64,000 bases of DNA, taken from contig OY760175.1 of assembly GCA_963663165.1 (NCBI GenBank), forward strand, positions 4,160,001 through 4,224,000, written 5' to 3'. This document shows positions 18,406-41,463 of this stretch, piece after piece. A model generated the notes under the pieces. It was not told the origin of the DNA. It saw only the letters and a program-made list of their open reading frames with translations, and searched no databases. Made by a program: the position numbers and the translations under genes. The first letter of the stretch is position 1. Each line of letters opens with the position of its first letter. Source of the DNA: an uncultured Desulfospira sp. (GTDB taxonomy: Bacteria > Desulfobacterota > Desulfobacteria > Desulfobacterales > Desulfobacteraceae).

Positions 18406-18585
18406 TAACGGCCACGGGCCGCCTTGGTTATCCAGCCAAGAACCGCCCACAACGAATAATGAAAGTCTTATCAGGATGTTAGTGAGACTTTCATATAACG
18501 GCCACGGGCCGCCTTGGTTATCCAACCAAGAACTGCCCACAACAAATATTGAAAGCACTCAACAGGTTGCTGAGTCTTTCATATA
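18406..18585 (+). repeat. Two tandem 90-bp repeat units
   Basis: Units start at 18406 and 18496 (taacggccacgggccgccttggttatcca...ctttcata). Confidence 0.85.
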
Positions 18586-19321: not shown

Positions 19322-20215
19322 ATCGGGTAGCCGGGGGTAGTTATCTACCCCAGACCCCCTCAGAACCGTACGTGACAGTTTCCCGTCATACGGCTCAAGC
19401 ATTTCTAAGGCTAAGCCTTGCGGGGCCGCCCGGTTGTTTGAGCAATAATGAAATTTACAGTCATTTCATAGCATGCGTCCTTGGGCATCGGCCAGGAAGT
19501 ACTGTTTTTTTTTCCTGGTCAAAGACATACGTCCTTTGAAAATGCCTTGGATGTAAATGCCGTACGCTCCTTTAACAACCTTTGCGATACGCATCTACAG
19601 TCTTTTAGCAGCATAAAGCTGCTGATGGGCGCACCAGCTAATGCCGTCATTTGCTTTCCCATCTTAAAAGATTCTCTAAACTCTCTCGCAAAGAAACACC
19701 TGCCCGGGTGTGTCTGTAGTCACACCCGCCGGACGTCAGCTTCCTTTCGGACCGGGTAATATCGGGGTTTTCTCCTCAACCCGTATCCACCTCATTACGA
19801 GATGGCCTTCGCTTTTTCCTGCATCTTACGCCCGCACCCCCATCAGTGTGCCTTGCGGTTTCACCTGCCGAATGTTCCCGGCGAAGATACGGGGTTTCCA
19901 CGTTCCACATTATTGCCGATTAATGGATGACTTAGGCCTGCCCACTGCACCGGCGGCGCAACATCTCACGCGGCAGTTCCGACACCTGCATCCTGACCAC
20001 TCACCTTTTGGTCCAAGCTTACCAGCCTCTTTAGCTTGTTCTCCCTGACGACGCTTAAGGAACATTCAATTAATTTGACCATATCATCCAAACCCTTGCC
20101 CTCACCCGGAATGAGGCTTCCAGGAGGGTATCCACCTCACGGCTTCCACCCCTTCCGCAACTGCGGAATTCGGTACTTTGTCGGTTGGGCTTCACACCGT
20201 TGCCGGATGCACCGG
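19322..20215 (-). mobile_element. Group II intron copy E, ORF-less, 5' end deleted
   Basis: Domain V GAGCCGTATGACGGGAAACTGTCACGTACGGTTC, 3' end ACCCGAT; homology to other copies stops at 20215. Confidence 0.88.
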
Positions 20216-21045
20216 CCATTGCCAGAACCATGAAACAAGTCAATGGATCGACCGGCAGCAAAATAAACTGTTTCATGGTGACTTTTACCTATCCCTGTCA
20301 GTTCAGAGATGTGGCATATCTGAATCAACGGGCAGTTTATTCTCTGATGTTTTCATGTGTATCCGGCACTTTGAAAGATTTTGGGCTCAACCCACGGCAC
20401 CTTGGTGCTCAGATCGGTATAACCATGGTCCTTCACACCAATAGCAGAAGATTGGACTTTCACCCGCATATTCACGTAATTGTTCCAGGTGGCGGTGTTG
20501 ATCCATCCAGACGGCAATGGAAAAAGAAAAAGGCAAGTATTTGTTTAACCAGAAAGCCCTGGCCAAGGTTTTCCGGGCACGTTTCCTGGATGGATTGAAC
20601 AAAAAAAATTTGCCGATCCCCAAAGGTGCTCGTCCCAAATGGGTTGTTGATTGTGAGAGGGTTGGAGCAGGTCTCTCTGCCCTGAAGTATCTGTCCAGGT
20701 ATTTATACAGGGGAGTGATCAGCGAGCGTAATATTATTGCCAACCAGAACGGTCAGGTTACCTTCAGGTATATTGACGGCAAAACCAAAAAAGTATGTAC
20801 GCGAACCCTTAACGGCGAAGATTTCCTGCGCCTGATCCTGCTTCATGTATTGCCCCGGGGATTTCGCAGGGCAAGGGATTACGGTTTTCTTCATGGGAAT
20901 GCCAAAAAAACTGCTCTTTCTGGTACAGATGATTCTCCACGTACGGATTACGGCAATAGTGCGTCGGCCAAGGCCTGTGTTTAAATGCCCCCATTGCGGG
21001 CAGCCTATGAAAATCCTGGGGATAAAACCTGCCGGTGCGGGATAG
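20216..21045 (+). pseudogene. IS91-family (Y2 HUH) transposase, 5'-truncated and frameshifted
   Basis: Four frames give HCQNHE.., FMVTFT, HPHIH (HUH), YLSRY (Y2), HVLPRGFRRARDYG, CPHCG. Confidence 0.88.
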
Positions 21046-21255
21046 GAAAAACAAAAGGTAGAAACCAAATCTCAATTTAACTGGAGGAGAGCAACTCTAT
21101 GAAATAATCCGGCTTTTTTTAGAAAGCCCTGAAAATGGCTATGCTACAGGTGCGCCTTATCTGCGATGTCCGGAAATCAAACTCCTTCCAGCCTCCTAAT
21201 CTCCAAAAAGATATTTTCATATATAGGGAAAGCCCGGTTCATTTTGGCCGGGCTT

Positions 21256-21316
21256 GTTCAACAATCGGATAAGATCGTGGTTCGTTCCTCACACGATCTA
21301 TCCTTATTCGTTGTGT
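21256..21316 (-). other. attC (short, 61 bp), abutting the IS91-like end
   Basis: Minus strand ACACAAC...AGGATAGATCGTG/CACGATCTTATCC...GTTGAAC. Confidence 0.75.
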
Positions 21317-21321
21317 GAGTA

Positions 21322-21732
21322 TTATAGCAAGATTGTTTTGAATGCCTTTTTCCCTTTAATTCTGTAAATAGAAAAGTCACGGTCAATAGTCGCTACTTCA
21401 TTTATCCCCATTTTTTCAGCGAGTAGGACAAGACATGAATCTGCAAAATCCATTGGTAGATCTCGATACTTTTTAGTCAGTTCTTTGATCCTCTGAAAAT
21501 CTGAATTTAATACATTGACTATTTCAACGCCACCCCGACTGACCCATTCGATAAAATCTAACTGTGCATTTCGGTTAAAATCCAAAAGATGCAATGTTTC
21601 TGTAATGGATGCGATCGTGGTTATGAGTAGAGCTTGATTTGACTGGATAAATTCAACAGTCTTTTGATGGTATTTGTCTGAGGAATCAAAAAGAGCAATT
21701 AATGGCCCACTATCAATAAGAATTTTGTTCAT
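21322..21732 (-). CDS. VapC/PIN toxin (cassette)
   Basis: ILIDSGPLIALFD, MDFADS, TIDRDF. Confidence 0.92.
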   Translation of the reverse strand: MNKILIDSGPLIALFDSSDKYHQKTVEFIQSNQALLITTIASITETLHLLDFNRNAQLDFIEWVSRGGVEIVNVLNSDFQRIKELTKKYRDLPMDFADSCLVLLAEKMGINEVATIDRDFSIYRIKGKKAFKTILL

Positions 21733-21971
21733 TTTCTTTTTGCCTGGAGTTTGTTTTTAAGAAGCTCTTTCCTGTTTGAGGACAAATCATTCCGGCCACT
21801 AGCATATTTGCCGAATAAATCTTGACCAGATTCCCACGCACTTTTTGTTTCTATTTTTTTGAAATAATCTACAAGGCTTTTTCGGATAAGCTCGGACTTT
21901 GTTAAGCCGAGATTTTTTGCTGTATAGTTTAATTGCTGCTCAAGCCTTGGGTCAAGTCTTAGTGTAATCAT
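21729..21971 (-). CDS. RHH/CopG antitoxin
   Basis: MITLRLDPRLEQQL...TKSELIRKSL; GGAGG RBS. Confidence 0.88.
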   Translation of the reverse strand: MITLRLDPRLEQQLNYTAKNLGLTKSELIRKSLVDYFKKIETKSAWESGQDLFGKYASGRNDLSSNRKELLKNKLQAKRK

Positions 21972-22035
21972 AATATCACCTCCGTAATACATATGGTAAT
22001 ACATCAAGACTAAAGAATCAACGTTCTTTTTTACA

Positions 22036-22870
22036 GTCGGGTAGGTCGGGGGGGCTTTACAGCCCCTTTCCCCCCCCTCAGAACCGTACGTGACAGTTTC
22101 CCGTCATACGGCTCAAGCATTTCTAAGGCTAAGCCTTGCGGGGGCGCCCGGTTGTTTTAGCAATAATGAAATTTACAGTTATTCCATAGCATGCTTCTTT
22201 GAGCATCCCCCAGGGAAGTACAGTTTTTTTTTCCCTGTTCAAAAAAACATACGTCCTTTGAAAATGCCTATAGATGTGCATGCCGTGTGCTTCTCTAACA
22301 ACCTTTGCGATACTCATCTACAGTCTTTTAACAGTATAAACTGCTGATGGGCGCACCAGCTATTGCCGTCATTTGCTTTCCCCTCTTCAAAGATTCTCCA
22401 GACTCTCTCGCAAAGAAACGCCTGCACGGGTGTCCCCGGCGAGGGTGCGGGGTTTCCACGTTCCACATTATTGCCGATTAATGGATGACTTAGGCCTGCC
22501 CACTGCACCGGTGGCGCAACATCTCACGCGGCAGTTCCGAAACCTGCATCCTGACCGCTCACCTTTTGGTCCAAGCTTATCAGCCTCTTTAGCTTGTTCT
22601 CCCTGACGACGCTTGAGGAACATTCAATTAATTTGACCATATCATCCAAACCCTTGCCTTCACCCGGAATGAGGCTTCCAGGAGGGTATCCGCCTCACGG
22701 CTTCCACCCCTTCCGCAGCTGTGGAATTCGGTACTTTGTCGGTTGGGCGTCACACCGTTGCCGGATGCACCGGTAACTGCATGCCACCTAGGGTGCCGGC
22801 AGGAGAATGCCGGGTTTGGTCAGGACCGACTGGCCCGCCAGACAGCCAATAATGCGACTTCGTGTCGCAC
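22036..22870 (-). mobile_element. Group II intron copy D, ORF-less, with an extra internal deletion
   Basis: 5' GTGCGACACG, domain V, 3' ACCCGAC; lacks about 165 nt (junction near 22433) present in the other copies. Confidence 0.9.
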
Positions 22871-23001
22871 CGAGAACGGGGAGCTGAGGGGCCAGGCTTT
22901 TGAACCCCAAAACTTCCGATAAAAAGTTAAGTTTTCCTGAACCAGAAACTCCCGATAAGGCCGCGCAGTAAGCTTGGTTCCTCTCCAGCGTTTTGTTGTG
23001 C
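22871..23001 (-). other. attC site; intron D adjoins its R' core
   Basis: GCACAAC...CAGCTCCCC-GTTCTCG|GTGCG. Confidence 0.88.
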
Positions 23002-23093
23002 AATATTTTTTCAAGCAAGCCGTCTCTCTTTCAAAATTGAAAATCAACTTATTTTTCCTTGCGCCATACGTCAATATGACGTATATTGAAATC

Positions 23094-23367
23094 ATGAATA
23101 AAGTTATTCTCCATAAACGAGTCCAAAAACAACTTAAGAAACTTCCTTCTCATATAGTTACAAACCTTGAAGTTTGGATGCAAACCGTTGAAGAAGACGG
23201 AATTTTTGAAGCTCGTAAGCTCTCTGGTTACCATGATGAGCCTTTGGGCGGCAAAAGAAAAAGGGCAGCGGTCTTTCAGGCTGTCCAAAGCATATAGAGG
23301 TTTTTACATTGAGCACAATGGCAATATAATTATAGAGGTTATTGAGGTGAACAAACATGAGTACTGA
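23094..23367 (+). pseudogene. RelE/HigB-like toxin split by a +1 A in a homopolymer; gene pair inverted relative to the array
   Basis: MNKVILHKRVQKQL...GYHDEPLGGKRK continues as GQRSFRLSKAYRGFY...EVNKHEY in another frame. Confidence 0.8.
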
Positions 23368-23653
23368 ATACGGCATTAAAGAATTAGAAAACGATTTTGG
23401 ACCTTTGACATTTGGCAAGGCTCTTGCGGCCCATAGAAAAGGCGAAGAAATGACCCAGAAGCAGTTTGCTGATTTTTTAGGTATAACATCATCCAGCCTT
23501 TGTGACCTGGAAAAAGGACGAAGAATACCGTCTGTGAAAAGGGCTGCTAAAATTGCGAAGGCCTTAGGAATGTCAGAAAAAACATGGGTTAAATTTGCCA
23601 TACAAGACATGATCCGTGAGGCTGAGCTTGAGTATACTGTGTCTGTCGCGTAA
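23357..23653 (+). CDS. HigA-like XRE antitoxin
   Basis: MTQKQFADFLGITSSSLCDLEKGRRIPS HTH. Confidence 0.9.
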   Translation: MSTEYGIKELENDFGPLTFGKALAAHRKGEEMTQKQFADFLGITSSSLCDLEKGRRIPSVKRAAKIAKALGMSEKTWVKFAIQDMIREAELEYTVSVA

Positions 23654-23735
23654 TACATTTAATGTGTTATAGGCTTTCAATAAGGCCGACAAGTCGAACT
23701 TGTTGAAAGTTAACCATCTCCGTTTCGTTTCAAAG

Positions 23736-25668
23736 ATCGGGTAGGTCGGGGGCTTTACAGCCCCTTTCCCCCCTCAGAACCGTACGTGACAGTTTCCCGT
23801 CATACGGCTCAAGCATTTCTAAGGCTGAGCCTTGCGGGGCCGCCCGGCTGTTTTCTCTTGCCAATGCTGAAATTTACAGTTATTTCATTACATATTTTCT
23901 CGGCCGCTGTGACAGGGATCACCTTTGGTTTCACCCGTCTTGCCCAGTGGATTTTATCCATGAAGGCCTGCACATTTTTCCTGGATGGTTTAATGAGCAG
24001 TTTGCCGTCATACTTACGAATGTTTTGGCCCAGAAAATCGAATCCCCGGTCAATTCGGGTAATCAGGGTCTTTTCTTCAGACAGGGATAGATCCCGTTCC
24101 GAGAGAAATCTGATTATGGCCGGTTTGACCTTGTCTTCAAGAAGTTCCCGGGTTGCACCGGTAATAATGAAATCATCAGCATACCGGATGACGTTGATTT
24201 TGGAACTGATGTCCTTACCGTTGCGTCTGTCCCTGACAGGGGCAACAGATCCGGCAGTCCCTTCAATGCCGTCCAGAACCATGTTGGCCAGTGTGGGAGA
24301 GGCAATGCCGCTTTGCGGTGTTCCCCGGCCTGTTGGAAAGAATTTACCGTCCTCCATAAACCCGGAAGCCAGCCATTTGGTAAGGATCATCTTATCCATA
24401 GGGATATGGTCGATCATCCAGTCATGGCTGATTTCATCAAAGCAGGCTTTAATATCCGCTTCAAGTATCCAGACCGGCGAGGTTTTCTTGGCCAGTGTAT
24501 TAAAGCATTGGGATATGGCGTCCGCACATCGCCTGTATGACCTGAATCCGTATGAATTGTGGTCGGCCAGTGTTTCTGCTATCGGCTCCAATGCCAGTTT
24601 ATACAATGCCTGAACAGCCTGTCGATCATTGTGGGAATACTTAACGGACGTTTCTTGCCGTTCTTTTTGGGAATATAGATCCGCCTGAGCGGTGATGGCT
24701 GGTATCCTCTCCGTTTGAGGTTGCCTGCTGCCTGGAATTTCTTCCTGGCGGTTTTCCAGGTGACGTTGTCGACACCCGGAGTGCGTTTCCCTTTATTGGA
24801 GGTCACGCGTTTTACAGCTAACAGCTTTGCCTGGTAAGAGTGGGTCAGAAGCCACTGGAGGGCCTTGGCCCGTCCGTATCTTCCTTCTTTCACAGCCTTT
24901 GCGATACGCATTTGCAGTCTTTTAACAGCTTCATAAATGGCTTTCCAATGAATGGACTTCCAATTCCTGAAACTGCCGATGGGCGCACCAGCTGTTGCCG
25001 TCATTTGCCTTCCCATCTTCAAAGATTCTCCAGACTATCTCGCAAAGAAACACCTGCCCGGGTGTGCCTGTAGCCACACCCGCCGGACGTCAGCTCCCTT
25101 TCGGGCCGGATAATGTTGGGATGTTCTCCTCAATCCGTATCCACCTCATTACAAGATGGCCTTCGCTTTTTCCTGCATCTTACTCCCGCACCTCCATCAG
25201 TGTGCCTTACGGTTTCACCTGCCGAATACTCCCGGCGAAGATACGGGGTTTCCACGTTCCACACTATTGCCAATTAGTGGATGACTTAGGCCTGCCCTCT
25301 GTACCGGCGGCGCAACATCTCCGTGCAGGCAGTTAGGAAACCTGCAGCCTGACCGCTCACCTTTTGGTCCAAGCTTACCAGCCTCTTTAGCTTGTTCTCC
25401 CTGACGGTACTTACGGAACATTCAATTAATTTGACCATATCATCCAAACCCTTGCCCTCACCCGGATTGAGGCTTCCAGGAGGGTATCTGCCTCACAGCT
25501 TCCACCCCTTCCGCACTTGCGGAATTCGGTACGTTGTCGGTTGGGCTTCACACCGTTGCCGGATGCACCGACCACCGCATGCCACCTAGGGTACCGGCAG
25601 GAGAATGCCGGGTCTGGTCAGGACCGACTGGCCCGCCAAACAGCCAATAATGCGACCTCGTGTCGCAC
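23736..25668 (-). mobile_element. Group II intron copy C with a defective IEP
   Basis: GTGCG...ACCCGAT boundaries; near-identical to copy A except a 372-nt in-frame deletion. Confidence 0.93.
23809..25016 (-). pseudogene. ltrA: Group II intron RT/maturase: frameshift near 24618, 124-codon deletion after YADD, PQGG changed to PQSG
   Basis: ORFs 24579-25022 and 23809-24606; RYADDF present. Confidence 0.9.
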
Positions 25669-25798
25669 CCGAACGGGGAGCTGAGGGGCCAGGCTTCTTA
25701 AACCCAAAAGCTCCGATAAAAGTTTAAATTTTCTTGAACCAGGGACTCCCGAGAAGGCCGCGCAGTAAGCCTGGTCCCGCTCCAGCGTTTTGTTGGCC
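25669..25798 (-). other. attC site; intron C inserted in its R' core
   Basis: GGCCAAC...CAGCTCCCC-GTTCGG|GTGCG. Confidence 0.9.
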
Positions 25799-25809
25799 CT
25801 TTAAAGTAT

Positions 25810-26187
25810 TCATTTGTGTTTAATGCTTTTCTTATATGTTGTAATTAACTTTGATATCATAGAATTAACATTGCAATTTTCATTATCTGCAAGATCATTT
25901 AACTTTTTAAAGTTTGAATCTGTAATGTTTTTGTCTAAAATTCTTACACTTCCATCGTTCCAACGTAGCACACCTCGACTATCAAGAATAAATCTATCAG
26001 GATATTGCTTTGCAGCCTTTTTCTTGGTTTCATTCCAAGCAGCATTTATTTCTCGAGTGGAAGATAGCTGCCCAACAAGACCTAAACGTAAAGTAACATT
26101 TTCTTTTAAATGTTCTGTTCCGTTCGGAAGTTCTGTAAGCTGTTCCAACATCATTTTCGATATTCTGCCTTTTGATAACATTGCCAT
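25810..26187 (-). CDS. Hypothetical cassette protein
   Basis: AT-rich ORF filling the space between two attC sites; start MAMLSK. Confidence 0.75.
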   Translation of the reverse strand: MAMLSKGRISKMMLEQLTELPNGTEHLKENVTLRLGLVGQLSSTREINAAWNETKKKAAKQYPDRFILDSRGVLRWNDGSVRILDKNITDSNFKKLNDLADNENCNVNSMISKLITTYKKSIKHK

Positions 26188-26212
26188 ATTTCCAATCCCT
26201 ATGATATTACGA

Positions 26213-26328
26213 GGCCAACGGGTAGGGGCATATTGCCGAGCAGGTTGTCGAAGCCAAGTTTTTTCGAAAACCAAGGGCTTTTGAAAAGCCGCTAGCCCCC
26301 CGGGTCGGCCTGCAGCGTTTTGTTGGGC
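26213..26328 (-). other. attC site with the L' arm deleted
   Basis: Aligns to attC 33159-33285 but lacks agctcagccgacc. Confidence 0.8.
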
Positions 26329-26333
26329 AAATT

Positions 26334-26687
26334 TTAATCAACTTCTCGTGGTTCAAGTAACAAATTAAGACCTTGCAATATTTCTTCAAAACGTTTTTTT
26401 GAAAGCGTCCCGATTTTTTCGGTTAGATCACTTTTATTGACTGTATAAATTTGCGAAATATTCACAACGCTTTTCTTCGGAATGTTTGCTTCACCTTTTT
26501 TAAGAGTTACATTTCCGGGTGCGCTGCCTAACCTTAAATTTGATGTGAGGGCACAAACAACGGAAGTGTTTATTCTACTTTGATTAAAAAGGTTATTTTG
26601 AATTACAAGATGTGGATGACGATAACCGGGTTCTGATCCTTGTGGCTCTCCAAAATCAATCCAATAGATGTCACCCTGTCTTACCAT
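26334..26687 (-). CDS. MazF/PemK toxin (cassette)
   Basis: QGDIYWIDFGEPQGSEPGYRHPHLVIQNNLFN. Confidence 0.92.
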   Translation of the reverse strand: MVRQGDIYWIDFGEPQGSEPGYRHPHLVIQNNLFNQSRINTSVVCALTSNLRLGSAPGNVTLKKGEANIPKKSVVNISQIYTVNKSDLTEKIGTLSKKRFEEILQGLNLLLEPREVD

Positions 26688-26926
26688 TGGTCTTTCACCA
26701 TTTTTTTATGTTTCGGGCGCATTTTTTGAACTAAAGAGTCTGCTTGTTGATCATCATAAATGTCGTTTAGCTGTTGAAGCAATTCAATGTTTTGATGACG
26801 CTGGATATACTCTTTGACTGCTTGTGAAAAGATATAACTTCTCGAGACATTTAAACTTTTTGCAAGAATATTTATTTTTTCAAAAATGGGCTTTTCTATA
26901 GAAATGGCTGTTTTTACATTCGGCAT
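26681..26926 (-). CDS. RHH-type antitoxin
   Basis: KTAISIEKPIF...VSRSYIFSQAVKEY; overlaps the toxin gene. Confidence 0.87.
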   Translation of the reverse strand: MPNVKTAISIEKPIFEKINILAKSLNVSRSYIFSQAVKEYIQRHQNIELLQQLNDIYDDQQADSLVQKMRPKHKKMVKDQW

Positions 26927-26990
26927 ATTGATTCCTCCATTATTTTTTTACAGTATAATGTCTGGTATGAAAGACGTCAATACTTTGGTA

Positions 26991-27121
26991 GCCCACCGGG
27001 GAGCTAACCGGCCGGGCGTTGAAGCCACAAAAGCTCCGATAAAAGTTTAAAATTTCATTAACCAAGCTGCTTCAAAATGCCGCGCAGATAAGCCCGGTCG
27101 GGTTCAGCGGCTTTGTTCGCC
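26991..27121 (-). other. attC site with R' core changed from GTT to GGT
   Basis: GGCGAAC...TAGCTCCCC-GGTGGGC. Confidence 0.82.
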
Positions 27122-27124
27122 TCA

Positions 27125-27460
27125 TCAGTATGCAAACAGTTCCTGTAAACAATTACAAACTTTAATTTGGGTAGTTTTTGAAATAACTCCAAACTTTTTG
27201 ACTAATCTTAATTTATCTACAGCTCTTATTTGATCCAATAATATCAAGCCTTTTTTACCTTGGAATGTACATTGAATTCTTGTGGGGAAATTGAAGCCTT
27301 TGGAGGTCATTGGGGCAACAATAGCCGTTTTTAATGAAGACATTTCGTCAGGAGAAATTACAACACAAAGCCTTTTTTTCTTTATTTCGTGACCTTGTGT
27401 CGGGTCCAATTGAACTAACCAAATGTCGAATCTGTTGATAGGCTGATTCACCATTCCCAA
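27125..27460 (-). CDS. PemK/MazF toxin (cassette)
   Basis: DIWLVQLDPTQGHEIKKKRLCVVISPDEM, LDQIRAVDK. Confidence 0.92.
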   Translation of the reverse strand: MGMVNQPINRFDIWLVQLDPTQGHEIKKKRLCVVISPDEMSSLKTAIVAPMTSKGFNFPTRIQCTFQGKKGLILLDQIRAVDKLRLVKKFGVISKTTQIKVCNCLQELFAY

Positions 27461-27702
27461 TCCTCATCATCAACCAGAGATGCATCCAACCATTCCTGGT
27501 CCAACTCCTCTTCGTTTTCTGCTTTAAGGTATTTTTCAAATTGTTTTTTCCACCCCTGCCTGGGTTTTCTGGATGGTTTTATTAACAGCCCTTCATCAAG
27601 CACCTTAAATTCCAGTTCTTTCTCATTAAGTTGTGCTTGTTCAATAATCGCTTTGGGAATTCTCACTCCTTGCGAATTTCCAATTCTTATTAATGTTGCC
27701 AT
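27448..27702 (-). CDS. AbrB/MazE antitoxin
   Basis: LIRIGNSQGVRIPKAII. Confidence 0.92.
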   Translation of the reverse strand: MATLIRIGNSQGVRIPKAIIEQAQLNEKELEFKVLDEGLLIKPSRKPRQGWKKQFEKYLKAENEEELDQEWLDASLVDDEDWEW

Positions 27703-27787
27703 AAACACCTCTAATTTTGATTAATGTAATTACAACATAATCACTTAATTCTGTTTTTGTCAAATCAAAATCGTAGGTTTTTAGAAG

Positions 27788-28777
27788 ATCGGGTAGCCGG
27801 GGGTAGTTATCTACCCCAGGCCCCCTCAGAACCGTACGTGACAGTTTCCCGTCATACGGCGCAAGCATTTCTAAGGCTAAGCCTTGCGGGGCCGCCCGGT
27901 TGTTTTAGCAATAATGAAATTTACAGTTATTTCATAGCATATATCCTTGAGCATCTGCCCGGAAAGTATTTTTCTTTTTCCGGGTCAAAAGAGAACATCC
28001 TTTTGAAAGATGCCTCTGGCGTGTATGCTGTGTGCTACTTTAACAACCTTTGCGATACGCATCTACAGTCTTTTAACAGAATAAATCTGCTGATGGGCGC
28101 ACCAGCTATTGCCGTCATTTGCTTTCCCATCTTCAAAGATTCTCCAGACTCTCTCGCAAAGAAACACCTGCCCGGGTGTGCCTGTAGCCACACCCGCCGG
28201 ACGTCAGCTCCCTTTCGGGCCGGATAATGTTGGGATGTTCTCCTCAATCCGTATCCACCTCATTACAAGATGGCCTTCGCTTTTTCCTGCATCTTACTCC
28301 CGCACCTCCATCAGTGTGCCTTACGGTTTCACCTGCCGAATACTCCCGGCGAAGATACGGGGTTTCCACGTTCCACACTATTGCCAATTAGTGGATGACT
28401 TAGGCCTGCCCTCTGCACCGGCGGCGCAACATCTCACGCGGCAGTTAGGAAACCTGCAGCCTGACCGCTCACCTTTTGGTCCAAGCTTACCAGCCTCTTT
28501 AGCTTGTTCTCCCTGACGGTACTTACGGAACATTCAACTACTTTGACCATATCATCCAAACCCTTGCCCTCACCCGGATTGAGGCTTCCAGGAGGGTATC
28601 TGCCTCACGGCTTCCACCCCTTCCGCAGTTGCGGAATTCGGTACGTTGTCGGTTGGGCTTCACACCGTTGCCGGATGCACCGACCACCGCATGCCACCTA
28701 GGGTACCGGCAGGAGAATGCCGGGTTTGGTCAGGACCGACTGGCCCGCCAAACAGCCAATAATGCGACTTCGTGTCG
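27788..28777 (-). mobile_element. Group II intron copy B, ORF-less; first 3 nt separated from it by copy A
   Basis: Begins CGACACG directly after the 3' end of copy A; domain V and ACCCGAT end. Confidence 0.9.
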
Positions 28778-31082
28778 ATCGGGTAGGTCGGGGGCTTTAC
28801 AGCCCCTTTCCCCCCTCAGAACCGTACGTGACAGTTTCCCGTCATACGGCTCAAGCATTTCTAAGGCTGAGCCTTGCGGGGCCGCCCGGCTGTTTTCTCT
28901 TGCCAATGCTGAAATTTACAGTTATTTCATTACATATTTTCTCGGCCGCTGTGACAGGGATCACCTTTGGTTTCACCCGTCTTGCCCGGAAGTATTGTTG
29001 ATGTTCCGGGTCAAAAGGATTTGCATCGCTTTTGATTTTGATGTGCCGTTGGATATGTATGCTGTGCGCTTTGATGAGTTCGGATGTTCTCGGGTTGCCG
29101 TTTTTATCTTTGACCACCGTTGAGAACCGCCCCGGTTTTGAGCCCTTTGACCAGTACGTCTTTTTCAACCATTGGATGCTTTTATTCCGGTGACGTCGTT
29201 TCACCCATTGCCACGCTTCATTCCATATGTACCCGTCAACATAGCTGAAAGTTTTTGCTGAGACAACATGTTTGTGATAGTTCGCCCAACCCCTTATTTT
29301 CATGTTAAGATCATGAATCAGAGCCTCGGCTTTCGATCCCCGGTGCTTCCTGAACGTCTCGTGGATTTTATCCATGAAGGCCTGCACATTTTTCCTGGAT
29401 GGTTTAATGAGCAGTTTGCCGTCATACTTACGAACGTTTTGGCCCAGAAAATCGAATCCCCGGTCAATTCGGGTAATCAGGGTCTTTTCTTCAGACAGGG
29501 ATAGATCCCGTTCCGAGAGAAATCTGATTATGGCCGGTTTGACCTTGTCTTCAAGAAGTTCCCGGGTTGCACCGGTAATAATGAAATCATCAGCATACCG
29601 GATGACGTTGATTTTGGAACTGATGTCCTTACCGTTGCGTCTGTCCCTGACAGGGGCAACAGATCCGGCAGTCCCTTCAATGCCGTCCAGAACCATGTTG
29701 GCCAGTGTGGGAGAGGCAATGCCGCCTTGCGGTGTTCCCCGGCCTGTTGGAAAGAATTTACCGTCCTCCATAAACCCGGAAGCCAGCCATTTGGTAAGGA
29801 TCATCTTATCCATAGGGATATGGTCGATCATCCAGTCATGGCTGATTTCATCAAAGCAGGCTTTAATATCCGCTTCAAGTATCCAGACCGGCGAGGTTTT
29901 CTTGGCCAGTGTATTAAAGCATTGGGATATGGCGTCCGCACATCGCCTGTATGACCTGAATCCGTATGAATTGTGGTCGGCCAGTGTTTCTGCTATCGGC
30001 TCCAATGCCAGTTTATACAATGCCTGAACAGCCTGTCGATCATTGTGGGAATACTTAACGGACGTTTCTTGCCGTTCTTTTTGGGAATATAGATCCGCCT
30101 GAGCGGTGATGGCTGGTATCCTCTCCGTTTGAGGTTGCCTGCTGCCTGGAATTTCTTCCTGGCGGTTTTCCAGGTGACGTTGTCGACACCCGGAGTGCGT
30201 TTCCCTTTATTGGAGGTCACGCGTTTTACAGCTAACAGCTTTGCCTGGTAAGAGTGGGTCAGAAGCCACTGGAGGGCCTTGGCCCGTCCGTATCTTCCTT
30301 CTTTCACAGCCTTTGCGATACGCATTTGCAGTCTTTTAACAGCTTCATAAATGGCTTTCCAATGAATGGACTTCCAATTCCTGAAACTGCCGATGGGCGC
30401 ACCAGCTGTTGCCGTCATTTGCCTTCCCATCTTCAAAGATTCTCCAGACTATCTCGCAAAGAAACACCTGCCCGGGTGTGCCTGTAGCCACACCCGCCGG
30501 ACGTCAGCTCCCTTTCGGGCCGGATAATGTTGGGATGTTCTCCTCAATCCGTATCCACCTCATTACAAGATGGCCTTCGCTTTTTCCTGCATCTTACTCC
30601 CGCACCTCCATCAGTGTGCCTTACGGTTTCACCTGCCGAATACTCCCGGCGAAGATACGGGGTTTCCACGTTCCACACTATTGCCAATTAGTGGATGACT
30701 TAGGCCTGCCCTCTGTACCGGCGGCGCAACATCTCCGTGCAGGCAGTTAGGAAACCTGCAGCCTGACCGCTCACCTTTTGGTCCAAGCTTACCAGCCTCT
30801 TTAGCTTGTTCTCCCTGACGGTACTTACGGAACATTCAATTAATTTGACCATATCATCCAAACCCTTGCCCTCACCCGGAATGAGGCTTCCAGGAGGGTA
30901 TCCGCCTCACGGCTTCCACCCCTTCCGCAACTGCGGAATTCGGTACTTTGTCGGTTGGGCTTCACACCGTTGCCGGATGCACCGACCACCGCATGCCACC
31001 TAGGGTACCGGCAGGAGAATGCCGGGTTTGGTCAGGACCGACTGGCCCGCCAAACAGCCAATAATGCGACCTCGTGTCGCAC
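28778..31082 (-). mobile_element. Group II intron copy A, full length (2305 nt)
   Basis: 5' GTGCGACACG, IEP ORF, domains V/VI, 3' ACCCGAT. Confidence 0.95.
28851..30430 (-). pseudogene. ltrA: Group II intron RT/maturase (CL-like, no HNH domain) with one frameshift near 30032
   Basis: WKSIHW..RLQMRIAKA..GKRTPGVD N-terminus, TPQGG, RYADDF, RGWANYH; IDRAVQAL broken by one missing G. Confidence 0.92.
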
Positions 31083-31209
31083 CACGACGGGGAGCTCAGC
31101 CGCCCGGAGCGAGAACCGAGAACTTCCCCAAAATTAAATTCTTTTCAAAAACCAAGGTCTTTCAAAAAGCCGATAGCTCTCCGGGTCGGCCTGCAGCGTT
31201 TTGTTGTGC
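31083..31209 (-). other. attC site; introns A/B at its R' core (GTC variant)
   Basis: GCACAAC...GAGCTCCCC-GTCGTG|GTGCG; near-identical to attC 31952-32078. Confidence 0.88.
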
Positions 31210-31951: not shown

Positions 31952-32078
31952 GCACAACGGGGAGCTCAGCCGCCCGGAGCGAGAACCGAGTACTTCCCAA
32001 AAATTAATTTTTTTCAAAAACCAAGGCCTTTCGAAAAGCCGCTAGCTCTCCGGGTCGGCCTGTAGCGTTTTGTTAGCT
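31952..32078 (-). other. attC site
   Basis: AGCTAAC...GAGCTCCCC-GTTGTGC imperfect hairpin. Confidence 0.9.
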
Positions 32079-32614: not shown

Positions 32615-32744
32615 AGCTAACGCGGAGCTGAGGGGCCAGGCTTTTAAACCCCAAAACTCTCGATAAAAAGTTGAATTTTCCTGAACCAAGCACTCCCAAA
32701 AGGCCGCGCAGTAAGCCTGGTCCCTCTCCAGCGTTTTGTTCTGC
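32615..32744 (-). other. attC site
   Basis: GCAGAAC...CAGCTCCGC-GTTAGCT; same family as 22871 and 25669. Confidence 0.9.
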
Positions 32745-33158: not shown

Positions 33159-33285
33159 GCAGAACGGGGAGCTCAGCCGACCGGGGCGTATAACCGAGCA
33201 GGTTGTCGAAGCCAAGTTTTTTCGAAAACCAAGCACTTTCGAAAAGCCGCTAGCCCCCCGGGTCGGCTGCAGCGTTTTGTTGTGC
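33159..33285 (-). other. attC site of cassette 1
   Basis: GCACAAC...GAGCTCCCC-GTTCTGC. Confidence 0.9.
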
Positions 33286-34138: not shown

Positions 34139-34212
34139 GCATTAATTGCAATTTTTGGGTATTATTTTACACAACTTGAACTACCCCCAGAAAGATATTG
34201 GATACCTACCAT

Positions 34213-35607
34213 ATGAATCCGGCAAAATCAACACACGAAAACGAAATCAAAAGATTTTGGGACAATTACATTAATCGTTTAGAACATGCTGGTATTAAAA
34301 GTAATGTTTCCAGGTGGTATGTGATCAGAGCCGAGCAGTATATCAAGGCTTTTCCGGATAAGCGTCTGGCCGATCATAACCCTGAGGACGTGGTCTCCTA
34401 CCTGGAGCAGCAGGGCCGGGCCGGCCGGATTCAGGACTGGCAGTTCCGGCAGCTGGTCGATGCTATACAGAATTTATTTTCCATGCTTGGCGTATCCTGG
34501 CTGTCGGATGTAGACTGGCAGTTCTGGATGGATTCAGCCGCGTCCCTGACAGAAGTTCATCCCACAGTTGCCGGCAGCCTTCCGGCTAAAGCAACCATTG
34601 AAAAATTATCCGGCCGAAAAGGCTCACAGCTTTCCGCTGTCCGCAAACTTCATGCAGATCTTCTGGAAAAGCTGCTGATCGTCTTGCGGACGAAGGGGTA
34701 TTCCATAAGAACCGAGCAGTCTTACGAATCCTGGGTAAGCCGTTTTATTGAGTTTTGCCAAAATCAGGACCCGGCCGGGCTTGGTAAGGTTGAAGTGGTC
34801 TCCTTTTTGCAACATCTGGCTGTTGGGCGGAATGTGGCGGAGAGTACCCAGAACCAGGCGTTGAATGCCCTTGTCTTTTTTTATGACAAGGTTTTGGAAC
34901 AGCCCCTGGGGGATCTTGGGGATTTTGTCCGGGTAAAACGCCCTAAACGGCGACCGGTTGTGCTGACCCGGATTGAAGTGGCAAAACTGATCGACCACAT
35001 GGAGGGCCGCCAGAAACTGATGGCCTCCCTGCTTTATGGCACCGGCATGCGGCTGATGGATTGTATCAGGCTCAGGGTCCAGGATATTGATTTTGGGTAT
35101 TATCAGATTGTGGTCAGGGACGGAAAAGGCAAAAAAGACCGGGTAGTTCCATTGCCGGAAGGGCTTGTCAGCGATCTTACGGCCCATCTTGAAAAAGTTC
35201 GTAAACTGCACGAGGCAGATTTGGAAAAAGGGTTTGGAGAGGTCTATCTACCCTATGCCTATGACCGCAAATCCCCCAAAGCGGCAAAGGAATGGGGATG
35301 GCAGTATGTGTTCCCCAGCGGACGGCTTTCCGTTGATCCAAGGAGTGGAAAAACACGCCGTCACCATATTCACGAAAATGGTCTTCAAAAAGCCGTGAAA
35401 AAAGCGGCGCAGCAGGCCCAGATTACGAAAAGGGTAAACTGCCACGCCCTTCGCCACAGTTTTGCCACCCATCTTCTGGAAAGCGGTTATGATATCCGTA
35501 CCGTGCAGGATCTGCTCGGCCATGCCAATGTTTCAACAACCATGATCTATACCCATGTGCTTAACCGGGGCGGGAGAGGCGTAAAAAGTCCCTTTGACGT
35601 GCTGTAA
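34213..35607 (+). CDS. intI: Integron integrase, long form with an N-terminal extension
   Basis: [18 protein letters not shown]...TTMIY plus the integron-specific WQYVFPS..SVDPRSG..RRHH segment. Confidence 0.96.
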
Positions 35608-38143: not shown

Positions 38144-38576
38144 ACGTAAAAACTGGAGGCGCGGCATGGTAAAAAAAGAAATCCTGAACCCTTCAAGGGT
38201 GCGTTGTATCAAAGGAGGATTTAGTTTTATCCCCCATCGGTTTCTTACGGGTGGATTTTTGCGAGCATTAAGCCGGGACGAGTTGTTATTGTATTTTTTC
38301 CTGGTTCTGGCCGGTGACCGCAACGGATTAAGTTTTTACAGTTATGATAAAATATGCACCCTGCTAAAAATGCAACTGGACCAGTACATTGAAGCTCGGG
38401 ATGGATTGATGGAAAATGATCTGATTGCCTTTGACGGCACCATTTACCAGGTGCTTTCCTTACCGGCCAACCTTATACAATCTGCTGTACAAAAAAAATC
38501 TTCCCTGAACAGCCGTCAACCTGAATCAGTTGGAAAAATTTTGAGCAAACTGGTTATGGAGGCCGATCATGGTTGA
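38136..38576 (+). CDS. Putative winged-HTH protein
   Basis: GGFSFIPHRFL, LLLYFFLVLAGDRNGLSFYSYDKIC; stop/start overlaps with both neighbours. Confidence 0.7.
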   Translation: MDKRKNWRRGMVKKEILNPSRVRCIKGGFSFIPHRFLTGGFLRALSRDELLLYFFLVLAGDRNGLSFYSYDKICTLLKMQLDQYIEARDGLMENDLIAFDGTIYQVLSLPANLIQSAVQKKSSLNSRQPESVGKILSKLVMEADHG

Positions 38577-39486
38577 GCAGACACCCAAAAGTCCGCCCGG
38601 TTATGATCTGGATCAGATCCGCCGGGATTATCTGGACCATATGCTTAAAATCAAGGAAAGCTCTCCTTCTCAAACCTGTTGCAGGACCAAAATTATCAAA
38701 GCGTTTGACAGTTATCTGCAAACATCGGGAGTCTCACTGGTCAATATAAACATAGGGCATGTTGATGATTTTCTGGCAAGGTTCAATGCCCCATATGCAA
38801 AGAGTACCCAGGGGGTATACCGTTCCTGTTTTCGAGGCTTTTTGCACTACCTGTATAATGAACGGCATTTGATCCAACAGAATTTAGCCCCGCTTGTGAC
38901 CGGTCCGCCAATGTTTGCTCAAGTCAAGCCTCCTAAATTTTTAAGACCCGGTGAAGTCCGTCAGTTATTTGATCATTTGCCCTGTGCAACATCCAAAGAG
39001 CTTCGTGTCTATGCACAGGTTCACCTGGCTTATTATCTTGGATTGCGCCCCATTGAAATCAGCCGCCTTACTCTGGACGATATCTGTTTTGCCAAAGGAC
39101 TGCTAAACCTGGAAAACACAAAAAATGCAAAGCCCCTTCAATTGCCCATTCCCGATGAAGTTATCAAAGCAATCACCGCTTATATCGTTGGAGGCAGGCC
39201 TAAAAGTCAGTCTCGCTCTCTTTTTTTAACCAGCCATTGCCCACCTTACAGAGCTGTAAGTGCCTGGCTCACCAGGCACGATTTAACAAAGGCGTTGCGG
39301 GCTGCCGGTCTTCCCGGTACAGGATATTGGCTGCGCCACACCTTTGCACAAAACATGCTGGAAGCAGGTGCCGGCATTTTTGAAATCAAAGAAATGATGG
39401 GGCATTCCATCATTGATTCCACAAAAGTATATCTAAGTATCCACAAGGAATTGATGCGCCGGGTGTTGTTCGATGAAACCGTTTAA
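38569..39486 (+). CDS. Tyrosine recombinase (RitA-like)
   Basis: GLRPIE, WLRHTFA, GHS..STKVY. Confidence 0.9.
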   Translation: MVEQTPKSPPGYDLDQIRRDYLDHMLKIKESSPSQTCCRTKIIKAFDSYLQTSGVSLVNINIGHVDDFLARFNAPYAKSTQGVYRSCFRGFLHYLYNERHLIQQNLAPLVTGPPMFAQVKPPKFLRPGEVRQLFDHLPCATSKELRVYAQVHLAYYLGLRPIEISRLTLDDICFAKGLLNLENTKNAKPLQLPIPDEVIKAITAYIVGGRPKSQSRSLFLTSHCPPYRAVSAWLTRHDLTKALRAAGLPGTGYWLRHTFAQNMLEAGAGIFEIKEMMGHSIIDSTKVYLSIHKELMRRVLFDETV

Positions 39487-40447
39487 AAGCTTTTTGGCCA
39501 CAGAGATGGAAAACTTTATTGTTTACCGGCAAGGACTGGGATACAGTTGCCATATGCTCCGGTGGGCCTTGCTTACCTTTGACGATTTTTTAATGAGGCA
39601 GCCGGATCTCTCAGACATTTGGATGCCCCATTTTTATATCACCTTTAAAAATGAGATTGGCCTTGAGCCCTCCGGCGTAGCCAGCATTCTAAATGTAGTT
39701 CGAGGCTTTTTTGATTATCTGAAACGGCAGCGGATAAATCTTGATAACCCTTTGAAAGATGTGACCGCTCCGGCCCGACGCACCTTCATCCCCTTTATAT
39801 TCTCACCGGAGCAGGTAGAAATGTTACTGGGGGTGGTATGCGGACGGATCCGGCAAACCCCTATGCGGTTCCTTAAAGATTACAGTGAATATCTGGTGAT
39901 CCTTCTGCTTGCCCGCTGTGGGCTGAGGATGAATGAACCCTTGCGCCTGAGATTGAAAAATTACCGGCCGGATGAAAAGACGATTTACATAGAGAAAACC
40001 AAGTTCAAAAAGGACCGTCTTATCCCTATTCCAAAATCAACTGCCATGCAGATTGACAACTATCTTTCAACCAGGGCCGCTTTAATTGAAAACGATATGA
40101 ATCCCTACCTGTTCATGGAGATAGGGGAAAACGGCTTGAACGATAACCGTATTCGCTCTGTTTTTCACGATGCTGTGCGTCAAATCGGGATCCGCCGCCC
40201 AAGGAAAATTATCGGCGACACGACCTTTGGGAAGCCCACTCCGCACTGTTTACGGCACTCTTTTGCCATTAACACCTTGAAGGCAGCCATTGCCCGGAAA
40301 CAATCACCCCGGAATGTGCTGCCGGTGCTTGCCGGCTATATGGGTCATGTTGAGTATAAATACACCATGGAATATTTGAAAGCAGTTGATGCTGAAAGCC
40401 GCGACAGCCTGTTCAAATTTACCACCGGCAGAAGGGATGAATCATGA
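39473..40447 (+). CDS. Tyrosine recombinase (RitB-like)
   Basis: GLRMNE, TKFKKDR, HCLRHSFA, LAGYMGH..TMEY. Confidence 0.9.
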   Translation: MKPFKSFLATEMENFIVYRQGLGYSCHMLRWALLTFDDFLMRQPDLSDIWMPHFYITFKNEIGLEPSGVASILNVVRGFFDYLKRQRINLDNPLKDVTAPARRTFIPFIFSPEQVEMLLGVVCGRIRQTPMRFLKDYSEYLVILLLARCGLRMNEPLRLRLKNYRPDEKTIYIEKTKFKKDRLIPIPKSTAMQIDNYLSTRAALIENDMNPYLFMEIGENGLNDNRIRSVFHDAVRQIGIRRPRKIIGDTTFGKPTPHCLRHSFAINTLKAAIARKQSPRNVLPVLAGYMGHVEYKYTMEYLKAVDAESRDSLFKFTTGRRDES

Positions 40448-41463
40448 ACCTGACCCGTTGCGTTGTTCAATTTTTTGACCAATACCTGCCTTATGTCAAA
40501 GGGTGCCGCCCCAATACGATCAAAAGTTACCGGGATACCATGCGCTTTTTTTTACCGTTTGCTGCCGAGTACCACAGCGTAAAGGTCAGTTCGCTCAATC
40601 TGGAACATATCACGGTAGAATTAATTTTGCAGTTTCTCAATGAGCTTGAATCCAAACGGTCCAACACGGCTAAAACCCGGAACCAGCGCCTGGCCGTTTT
40701 AAAGTCTTTTGCCAAAATGATCCGTTTTATTTATCCCGAGCAACAAAAACTGACCAATGCGATCCTTGATATTCCCCGGAAACGAAGCCAACACAAGTTG
40801 ATCGGATTTTTGTATCCCCAGGAGATCAATCAAATCCTTAATGCGGTCCAACTTAAAAGAAAGGACGGGTTCCGAGATTATACCCTTCTGTATCTATTAT
40901 ATGATACCGGTGCCAGGGCAACGGAAATCGCTACCCTTGAGATGGATTATTTTGATTATGAAAATCAAACTCTGGCGATTCTTGGGAAGGGTAACCGATA
41001 TCGACAAGTTCAGTTGCTTGGGAAAACAGTAGAGCTTATGCATCAGTATATTGAAGAACATCGCAATACGCCAATCCATCCGTTTAAAAAAAGGCTGTTC
41101 ATCAACCAAAGAGGAACAAGCTTGACCCGCCACGGTATCAACCGGATCTGTAAAAACTACCTTGAACAGGCTTTACCGGCAAAGCGGACAGCGACCATGC
41201 ACCCCGTCCATAGCTTCCGTCATTCGTGTGCCGTTCGAATGCTCTCAGAGGATCGGCCTTTATCTGAAATTAAGAATCGCTTGGGGCATTCTAATGTCAA
41301 ATCCACAATGGTTTACTTAAAGCTTGATCTAGGCCAGAAGCGACATTTACAAGAGAACTTCATCCAGTTCACCAAACAGCACCTGAAATCTGATCCGAAA
41401 ATTGAGGAGTTGATCCAGTGGGAAAACAAGCAAAACGTTCTTGAGTGGCTGGATAGTCTATAG
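40444..41463 (+). CDS. Tyrosine recombinase (RitC-like)
   Basis: TRNQRLAVLKSF, TGARATE, GKGNR, HSFRHS, GHS..STMVY. Confidence 0.9.
   Translation: MNLTRCVVQFFDQYLPYVKGCRPNTIKSYRDTMRFFLPFAAEYHSVKVSSLNLEHITVELILQFLNELESKRSNTAKTRNQRLAVLKSFAKMIRFIYPEQQKLTNAILDIPRKRSQHKLIGFLYPQEINQILNAVQLKRKDGFRDYTLLYLLYDTGARATEIATLEMDYFDYENQTLAILGKGNRYRQVQLLGKTVELMHQYIEEHRNTPIHPFKKRLFINQRGTSLTRHGINRICKNYLEQALPAKRTATMHPVHSFRHSCAVRMLSEDRPLSEIKNRLGHSNVKSTMVYLKLDLGQKRHLQENFIQFTKQHLKSDPKIEELIQWENKQNVLEWLDSL

Follow-up and report, generated by a model that had tools for sequence, protein, structure and literature searches.

Why do copies of one group II intron lie directly behind the recombination sites (attC) of an integron, all in the orientation of the gene cassettes? 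The question is raised by a 64,000-nt stretch of contig OY760175.1 (hereafter the window; positions are window positions unless stated otherwise), which is part of a genome of 6.74 Mb labelled G000. The cassette array of this integron is on the minus strand, divergent from the integrase gene intI, and runs from ~33960 down to ~18300. It holds five intron copies, named A to E. We conclude that these copies very probably belong to an endonuclease-less IIB1 family, which homes to the 3' end of attC on the cassette-sense (top) strand.

Intron copies and their junctions

The Rfam search of the window gave five matches to domain I (RF02012) and five to domain V-VI (RF00029), all on the minus strand and above gathering scores. 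Introns and cassette open reading frames (ORFs) share this strand, so that all five copies are in cassette sense. The introns start with GUGCG and end with GAU or GAC, and domain V is 34 nt long (28852..28819). The copies, together with the gene remnant for the intron-encoded protein (IEP) of A, are the following:

28778..31082, minus strand: intron A, 2305 nt, all RNA domains, GUGCG...GAU
28851..30436, minus strand: IEP pseudogene of A, in two frames (ORFs of 147 aa and 389 aa), with RVT_N, RVT_1 and GIIM and no HNH
27788..28777, minus strand: intron B, ORF-less derivative, first 3 nt (GUG) missing, abuts the 3' end of A
23736..25668, minus strand: intron C, frameshift as in A and a 372-nt deletion in the IEP gene
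22036..22870, minus strand: intron D, ORF-less, internal deletion of ~165 nt after domain I, exon-binding site 1 (EBS1) CGGAAC
19322..20218 (start approximate), minus strand: intron E, ORF-less derivative

All five copies are defective as retroelements. The IEP gene of A is broken by the loss of 1 nt near 30031-30043. The 5' junction of E is lost, since homology begins at intron nt 95 and the first 94 nt are gone. The segment upstream of this truncated copy, 20240-21320 on the minus strand, is devoid of attC and has two ORFs, of 118 and of 121 aa, neither of which matches Pfam.

The window contains a family of eight attC sites, with lengths of 116-131 nt, plus a few sites of other types. Those that flank introns are imperfect palindromes of 127-131 nt, which run from R'' (RYYYAAC) to R' (GTTNNNN), with AAC and GTT as cores. 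The eight sites are:

31083..31209, minus strand: attC occupied by intron A, R'' GCACAAC, R' GTCGTG before the intron
25669..25798, minus strand: attC occupied by intron C, R'' GGCCAAC, R' GTTCGG before the intron
22871..23001, minus strand: attC occupied by intron D, R'' GCACAAC, R' GTTCTCG before the intron
33159..33285, minus strand: unoccupied attC, R' GTTCTGC
32615..32744, minus strand: unoccupied attC, R' GTTAGCT
31952..32078, minus strand: unoccupied attC, R' GTTGTGC
26991..27121, minus strand: unoccupied attC, atypical R' GGTGGGC
26213..26328, minus strand: unoccupied attC, R' GTTGGCC, divergent 3' arm

With an arrow marking the junction, here and below, the 5' junction reads CTCCCCGTCGTG↓GTGCG in A, CTCCCCGTTCGG↓GTGCG in C and CTCCCCGTTCTCG↓GTGCG in D. 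Each of the three lies 6-7 nt past the G of the R' box, and is followed by GUGCGAC. The initial annotation of this DNA had described five copies in the same orientation, with three intact 5' junctions 6-7 nt into R', and its reading of the junctions agrees exactly with ours.

The copies were then mapped over the whole genome, by a domain I search (20 matches) and by BLAST with the whole of intron A. Three arrays, all on the minus strand, were found at 1.86-1.92 Mb, 4.18-4.19 Mb (the window) and 5.54-5.61 Mb; the first and the third are attC clusters only, as the integrase is absent from both. Sixteen 5' ends were listed genome-wide, and 15 exon-flanked ones remained once B, which abuts A, had been set aside. 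All 15 are placed at GT(T/C)NNN(N)↓ (GTT in 14 cases, GTC in one), with an offset of 6 nt in 10 cases and of 7 nt in 5. A junction position shared by 15 out of 15 copies is far beyond chance. The sequence upstream is GCTCCC(C/T) at 11 of these junctions and GAGCTTATC at 2; as to the last 2, the junction at 903578 comes after a short hairpin site, and the one at 2945506, which belongs to a diverged fragment, comes after CACCCCGGCC.

The first of these two copies (G000 903533-904577, plus strand) is ORF-less and lies outside the arrays, at the short hairpin site TAAC...GCTGCGG..CCGCAG...GTTCTGG↓. The other copies differ from it in the EBS2 region (here CGGAG) and in EBS1 (here CCGAAC). In another genome, G003 (L077/L120, L124, L138), a related intron occupies short sites that are almost identical.

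At the 3' end, the junction pattern returned 22 rows, 14 of which had kept their domain VI context; the other 8 were dropped as chance matches. The 14 3' exons are all different from each other, and each of them starts with a pyrimidine (C in 9, T in 5). A paralogous cassette junction that has no intron reads ...CAGCTCCCCGTTGTG↓CTTTGATACGGAG, with R' box GTTGTG; its alignment with the 3' exon of C begins at base +1. The intron was therefore inserted precisely, after the sixth and before the seventh R' position.

How many sites are available was estimated with the motif GCTCCC[CT]GT[TC], which has 71 matches in the genome, both strands included. On visual inspection, 33 of them were taken as attC ends belonging to the three arrays; 11 are directly followed by an intron and 22 are empty. 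Only one copy in the genome has an intact reverse transcriptase (RT) gene: copy F (G000 5575411..5573101), in the 5.57 Mb cluster, carries a 522-aa RT/maturase ORF with YADD. The ORF-less sub-family, characterised by one common deletion structure and a domain VI variant of its own, is found at 7 different sites. ORF-less and frameshifted copies, including all five of the window, would depend on the protein of copy F acting in trans. The genome amounts to a natural experiment, in which a single autonomous copy coexists with two non-autonomous sub-families, and 11 filled sites with 22 empty ones.

Introns also follow one another directly. A is immediately followed by B minus GUG, and in G001, a Desulfatiglandales metagenome-assembled genome (MAG), one copy of the L108/L106 pair lies exactly after the other. 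Recognition would be almost wholly in the 5' exon, so that an occupied site stays a target, and this would explain the tandem introns. Joining the flanks of A gives CTCCCCGTCGTGCGACAC, which resembles the common target CTCCCCGTTGTG↓C. For the A-B pair, simple re-homing upstream of B was rejected, as the extra GTG that it predicts is absent. We suspect that, prior to the arrival of A, slippage reduced GTG↓GTG to a single GTG, and that a target with C at +1 was recreated in this way.

Guide sequences and intron class

Three segments of domain I are the proposed guides to the attC end. In intron A they are:

30743..30759, minus strand: EBS1 hairpin, with EBS1 CCUAAC at 30751..30746; a minimum free energy (MFE) hairpin, covariation with the flanks in relatives
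30811..30817, minus strand: EBS2a + A + EBS2, with EBS2a C at 30817 and EBS2 GGGAG at 30815..30811
30713, minus strand: candidate EBS3, the G at intron nt 370, whose column covaries best with the +1 base

They were examined on a domain I alignment of 31 sequences, namely those of F, D and 29 relatives. According to the sections of Monachello et al. (2021, PMC8643678) on this region, three nucleotides separate the 5' strand of helix ID(iv) from EBS2 in IIB1 and IIB2 introns, the middle one being EBS2a, which is followed by an A; its partner, the intron-binding site IBS2a, immediately precedes an IBS2 of 5 nt, and is in most cases at -14, in some at -13. In our alignment, helix ID(iv) (F nt 260-264 with 361-365) has its five positions paired in 31 out of 31 sequences, with compensatory changes, and is then followed by U-C-A-GGGAG. 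The GGGAG motif, reported earlier for every copy, was indeed seen in all five copies of the window, at intron nt 268-272 (30815..30811 in A). EBS2 of copy F is complementary at 5/5 positions to CTCCC (-12..-8), and the C of its EBS2a to G(-13). Over this genome, 5/5 complementarity of EBS2 together with the EBS2a pair was counted at 11 sites. Among the aligned introns, 15 of 27 have an EBS2 that pairs at least 4/5 with its own flank, against 2.7% of cross pairs.

The loop that contains CCUAAC, CUCAAC or CGGAAC (nt 328-336) is the EBS1 loop. In 16 of 28 aligned introns, EBS1 makes 6/6 Watson-Crick pairs with the last six bases of its own exon, against 0.7% for mismatched intron-flank pairs. Placing GGGAG and CCUAAC in EBS loops, as had been proposed, is thus supported by the ID(iv) layout in the case of EBS2 and by covariation with the flank in the case of EBS1. 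The downstream CCTAAC of the initial annotation (nt 332-337, 30751..30746 in A) is also found in B and C; D and E have CGGAAC in its place.

The G proposed as EBS3 stands two bases past the 3' strand of helix ID(iv). Compared with the first base of the 3' exon, it gives 11 Watson-Crick and 2 wobble pairs out of 18. This assignment is tentative, and would fit the invariable C or T at +1.

The predicted target is then G-CTCCC-C-GTTNNN↓Y, composed of the end of L', an unpaired spacer and the R' box. On it, EBS2a (C) would pair with G(-13) and EBS2 (GGGAG) with CTCCC(-12..-8), EBS1 (NNNAAC) would pair with the R' sequence GTTNNN at -6..-1, and EBS3 (G) would probably pair with the pyrimidine at +1. 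The intron would reverse-splice between R' positions 6 and 7.

Such an insertion point has consequences for the cassettes. The crossover made by the integrase in attC is located at G↓TT. As judged from the position of the junction and from textbook attC recombination, this point should stay upstream of the intron, which would therefore belong to the downstream cassette. Lying on the cassette side of the crossover, the intron could be moved by integrase activity. A sense-oriented intron would moreover be co-transcribed with the cassettes and, if intact, spliced out; as sense insertion permits splicing, the cassettes may still be expressed.

Concerning the class of the intron, residues 11-486 of the F protein matched the RT of PDB entry 6me0 with 554 bits (2.5e-165), compared to 117-121 bits (~e-33 to e-28) for three class C (IIC) RTs, and an E-value of 2.9e-36 for LtrA. 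The 6ME0 and 6MEC structures are those of the T. elongatus intron Th.e.I3, which is treated as IIB1 in the sections of Monachello et al. concerned with it (PMC8643678). Pfam found RVT_N, RVT_1 and GIIM in the IEP, and no HNH domain. The best plasmid relatives of the IEP are ~54% identical. The earlier view that the IEP is not of class C and is devoid of HNH holds in the light of these scores and of the IIB1 layout of EBS2a and EBS2, which also make the proposed CL type probable.

Relatives and competing explanations

A tree of 80 IEPs was built (IQ-TREE quick search, LG+G4). All 13 rows labelled for a GTT flank fell within a single IEP clade of 19 rows, with a Shimodaira-Hasegawa-like approximate likelihood ratio test (SH-aLRT) support of 93. 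This label requires 4 changes on the tree; shuffled labels require 12.3 on average, and 0 of 500 shuffles went as low. Two of these rows, L025 (whose contig ends two bases ahead of the intron) and L026 (which abuts another intron), were labelled by kinship, which leaves 11 visible GTT flanks. The label was found in 0 of the 61 other rows of the tree, where ~27 junctions were read and the flanks end variously. Junctions of relatives were counted only if the intron started with GUGCGAC or UUGCGAC, as an automatic search for the EBS1 complement gave many false positions. The 5' ends of L029, L032, L037 and L039 were not fixed, and contig ends truncate L025 and L079. L037 and L039, which belong to the same IEP clade, have a GUGUG start that aligns at ~nt 70 of the other introns, and the sequence directly before it is common to both; either their 5' region is a shortened one, or they share a truncation.

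G001 contains 12 copies; one comes after another intron, and 11 are at GTTNNN↓, in ten cases with an attC-like end such as GGTGAGCTTGTCGTTCGC. Five pair 6/6 with EBS1 GCGAAC. Nine copies of this genome lie within 1-60 kb on the expected cassette side of an intI match (one below cut-off) and point in the expected cassette direction, which is taken here from the orientation of intI only. G003 has 17 of its 18 copies at GTT and one at GGTAGG; five of the sites are a perfect GTTAGG for CCUAAC, and the upstream sequences are heterogeneous. The copy L028 of G005 has a broken intI at a distance of 4 kb. Its flank ends with CGTTAG↓, and a palindrome upstream gives an ambiguous R' box. In these three genomes, copies are located on the cassette side of intI. 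No attC was assignable to the flank of L030. That homologues insert at attC sites is supported by relatives at GTTNNN↓ in three further integron-bearing genomes.

A Bacteroidales MAG (G002, L049-L054) has five copies that start with UUGCG and come after GTTG↓ or GTTA↓ of attC-like hairpins. EBS1 and EBS2a of these copies covary with the flank (EBS2a with position -13). No integron integrase above cut-off was found in this MAG, and its flanks were not accepted as attC sites for that reason, even though they look like attC hairpins. The MAG has a 289-aa tyrosine recombinase gene which scores ~100 bits with the integron integrase model, below cut-off. Several intron copies have this gene in their vicinity: it lies within L052, for instance, and at 1.5 kb from L050.

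Several observations weigh against the homing of this IIB1 family to attC by base pairing. EBS1 matches mostly 5/6 at the junctions of this genome, and 4/6 in A, with G-U/G-T pairs allowed. Accordingly, the EBS1 pairing claimed at first for the flanks of the window amounts to 4-5/6, and reaches 6/6 only with one T bulged out. Three of the five 7-nt junctions become perfect in this way: GTTC(T)CG with CGGAAC (twice) and GTTC(T)GG with CCGAAC. The three variable bases of EBS1 do not follow the flank in this genome. Copy F has EBS1 CUCAAC and yet occupies a GTTAGG site, and three GTTAGG sites, which are perfect for CCUAAC, are empty; two of these have G at +1. Every EBS1 variant does pair 5/6 with GTTGTG, the commonest R' box among the GCTCCC[CT]GT[TC] sites listed. 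The mismatch between EBS1 and flank may be due to relaxed specificity, to a requirement at +1 or to gene conversion between copies.

The EBS2 pairing is also limited in extent. In the Desulfobacterota relatives L027, L028, L030, L072, L077 and L081, EBS2 pairs at most 3/5 with the flank. A targeting model based on sequence only is therefore incomplete for the clade, and EBS1 against GTT would be the conserved determinant. The pairing of EBS2 with the attC flank that had been put forward stands for this genome and fails for its other Desulfobacterota relatives; the match seen here may reflect the unusually uniform attC repeats of this genome. In addition, the MFE fold of a single sequence pairs GGGAGAA with UUCUCC at nt 63-68. 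This fold of the EBS2 segment was set aside, because the alignment fold and the helix counts support the canonical layout; the alignment fold keeps a hairpin loop at nt 63-68, and a tertiary contact is possible. Other reservations are of a more general kind. The attC sites were called by inspection and regular expressions, not with a covariance model. The CL1 label is a probable one, deduced from the PDB match and the RNA layout and not from a class-labelled tree. Finally, retrohoming as the route of spread, mobilisation in trans, splicing and travel with the cassettes are all predictions drawn from the DNA sequence.

If the relatives are taken into account, a broader picture may be considered, to which we give slightly less credence than to its opposite. 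The GTT-flanked introns would form a monophyletic clade, extending over several phyla, of endonuclease-less IIB1 attC specialists, as a top-strand mirror of the class C introns found at attC (IIC-attC introns). EBS1 NNNAAC would be directed against the universal GTT of R', and EBS2 would be adapted only where the attC sites of the host are uniform, another cue (such as the single-stranded attC hairpin, or the intron's protein) being used elsewhere. Such introns would ride on cassettes and be spliceable.

Alternatively, recognition may be structural, as in class C. The ribonucleoprotein would find the folded hairpin of top-strand attC in single-stranded DNA and make use of a short EBS1, and the EBS2 match would be a local adaptation or a coincidence. 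This idea was also raised in a passage of Sonbol and Siam (PMC7923331). It would account for the EBS2 left unpaired in the six Desulfobacterota relatives, for the fact that 17 of 18 copies in G003 keep the same offset despite a heterogeneous upstream sequence, and for the EBS1 mismatches tolerated in this genome. We nevertheless consider it unlikely: the full IIB1 apparatus of EBS2 and EBS2a is kept, with its 5/5 and EBS2a pairs at 11 sites here, EBS2a covaries with -13 in the Bacteroidales copies, and EBS1 has its full 6 nt, unlike the short class C type.

It might also be that the introns spread without any retrohoming, intron-bearing cassettes being duplicated or shuffled by IntI or by homologous recombination between arrays. 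An intron placed as these are would, judging from its junction, move with the downstream cassette. The frameshift common to A and C, and the poor correlation between EBS1 and flank, which fits recombination among copies, would also agree with such shuffling. The flanks tell otherwise, and make this explanation very improbable. The 3' exons are different sequences in 14 cases out of 14, and the 5' flanks come from at least two attC sub-types, with different R' boxes. The ORF-less sub-family, with a single deletion structure and its own domain VI variant, sits at 7 different sites, and tandem introns (A-B, and L106-L108 in G001) are expected from re-homing into an occupied site.

Lastly, the position in the R' box and the IEP without endonuclease domain might suggest that the family is nothing but an ordinary IIC-attC intron assigned to the wrong strand. 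This is ruled out for all practical purposes by the RT scores (117-121 bits with IIC RTs versus 554 with the IIB1 RT), by the insertion on the cassette sense strand and by the presence of EBS2, which IIC-attC introns, to our knowledge, lack.

The array in context and known attC introns

The integrase gene from which the array diverges is a single feature:

34198..35607, plus strand: integron integrase intI ORF, TIGR02249 5e-137, above cut-off

No second intI above the TIGR02249 cut-off was found elsewhere in the 6.74-Mb genome. The true start of the gene is probably later than the listed TTG, since the match to the family spans 34663-35604. The part before it (34198-34662) is a 155-aa N-terminal extension without match to the integrase model. 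Many of the array cassettes are type II toxin-antitoxin pairs (PIN/MazE-type, PemK/RHH, PemK/MazE and RelE/HTH, by Pfam).

At the far end of the array, which adjoins a sugar transferase gene, the segment 18303-18626 (minus strand) has two direct repeats of 60 nt, 93% alike (18406-18465 and 18496-18555), which end with GCCGTTA and resemble a different type of attC. A row of three ORFs, of 305, 324 and 339 aa, occupies the plus strand at 38569-41463; all three are similar to tyrosine recombinases and match the integrase model weakly. The trio looks like a 'recombinase in trio' mobile element. At least 8 genomic positions carry it, including two next to the attC cluster at 5.54-5.61 Mb. The cumulative GC skew has its minimum near 4.0 Mb and its maximum near 0.75 Mb, the window being on a flat part near the minimum. 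The three minus-strand arrays are on different replication strands, and a replication-strand bias can therefore not be claimed.

Contigs of a marine-sediment metatranscriptome (run X1) match the window at 23116-23663 (a cassette ORF) and at 25003-25613 (domain I), with 90-97% identity. Related elements are thus present in the RNA libraries of other samples, where they may belong to other organisms. The public runs (X1 RNA metatranscriptome, X4, X6, X8) consist of contigs, which are broken by the repeated intron and are uninformative on splicing and on empty sites in other strains. Among the joins listed from these runs, none skips exactly the interval 23736-25668 of intron C.

The initial annotation had assumed that only class C introns are known at attC. 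Likewise, the part of Zimmerly and Semper (2015, PMC4424553) that deals with insertion lists attC under class C only, and homing for the other classes. The initial annotation thereby overlooked one published intron. UHB.I2, from the cassette array of the Tanatar-5 soda-lake metagenome, is described as a IIB1 intron with an endonuclease-minus (En-minus) CL1 protein, inserted in cassette sense directly after attC (Sonbol and Siam 2021, PMC7923331). In the passages devoted to it, its authors see no conservation in the flanking exons and speculate on a role of the hairpin; they also mention fragments of class E introns in an attC cluster of Halorhodospira (PMC7923331). Among the papers returned by full-text searches, UHB.I2 is the one precedent for a sense-strand IIB1 intron at attC, and supplements of papers may hold more.

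The likeness between UHB.I2 and the present family extends to the RNA subgroup, the type of protein, the cassette-sense orientation, the position directly after attC and the type II toxin-antitoxin cassettes around. UHB.I2 differs in being a single copy, on a truncated contig without an integrase in view, and in its ends, UUGCG..GU. The present family, unlike UHB.I2 as described, has 15 exon-flanked junctions at a fixed base of R', EBS segments backed by covariation, non-autonomous derivatives and a clade of relatives that behave alike; the two are compared here by description.

IIC-attC introns (S.ma.I2 type) are similarly En-minus and specialised on integron attC sites, as presented in the corresponding sections of both articles (PMC4424553, PMC7923331). 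They are of class C and insert into the bottom strand of attC, antisense to the cassettes, after the folded hairpin, whereas the present family is IIB1, on the top strand, and has full EBS1 and EBS2. A single class C intron that is sense-oriented in attC has the orientation seen here and a different class. The model IIB1 introns EcI5 and Th.e.I3 (T.el4h) have the same layout, ID(iv)-N-EBS2a-A-EBS2, with a 5-bp EBS2 and a 6-nt EBS1, and home to unique sites in genes or insertion sequences (IS), in contrast to the repeated recombination site used here (sections of PMC8643678 on these introns). IBS2a and IBS2 of the present family are one nucleotide nearer to the junction (-13 and -12..-8), a shift noted there for a few introns (PMC8643678).

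Three features go beyond the published case. Autonomous and non-autonomous copies coexist in one genome, where one third of the sites is occupied. A full set of EBS2a, EBS2, EBS1 and possibly EBS3 maps, by predicted pairing, onto the end of attC, and this EBS2 pairing appears not to be general in the clade. A base-pairing IIB1 intron would thus have adopted the R' box of attC as its homing site, on the strand opposite to that used by class C introns, and could be a candidate scaffold for an attC-directed targetron.

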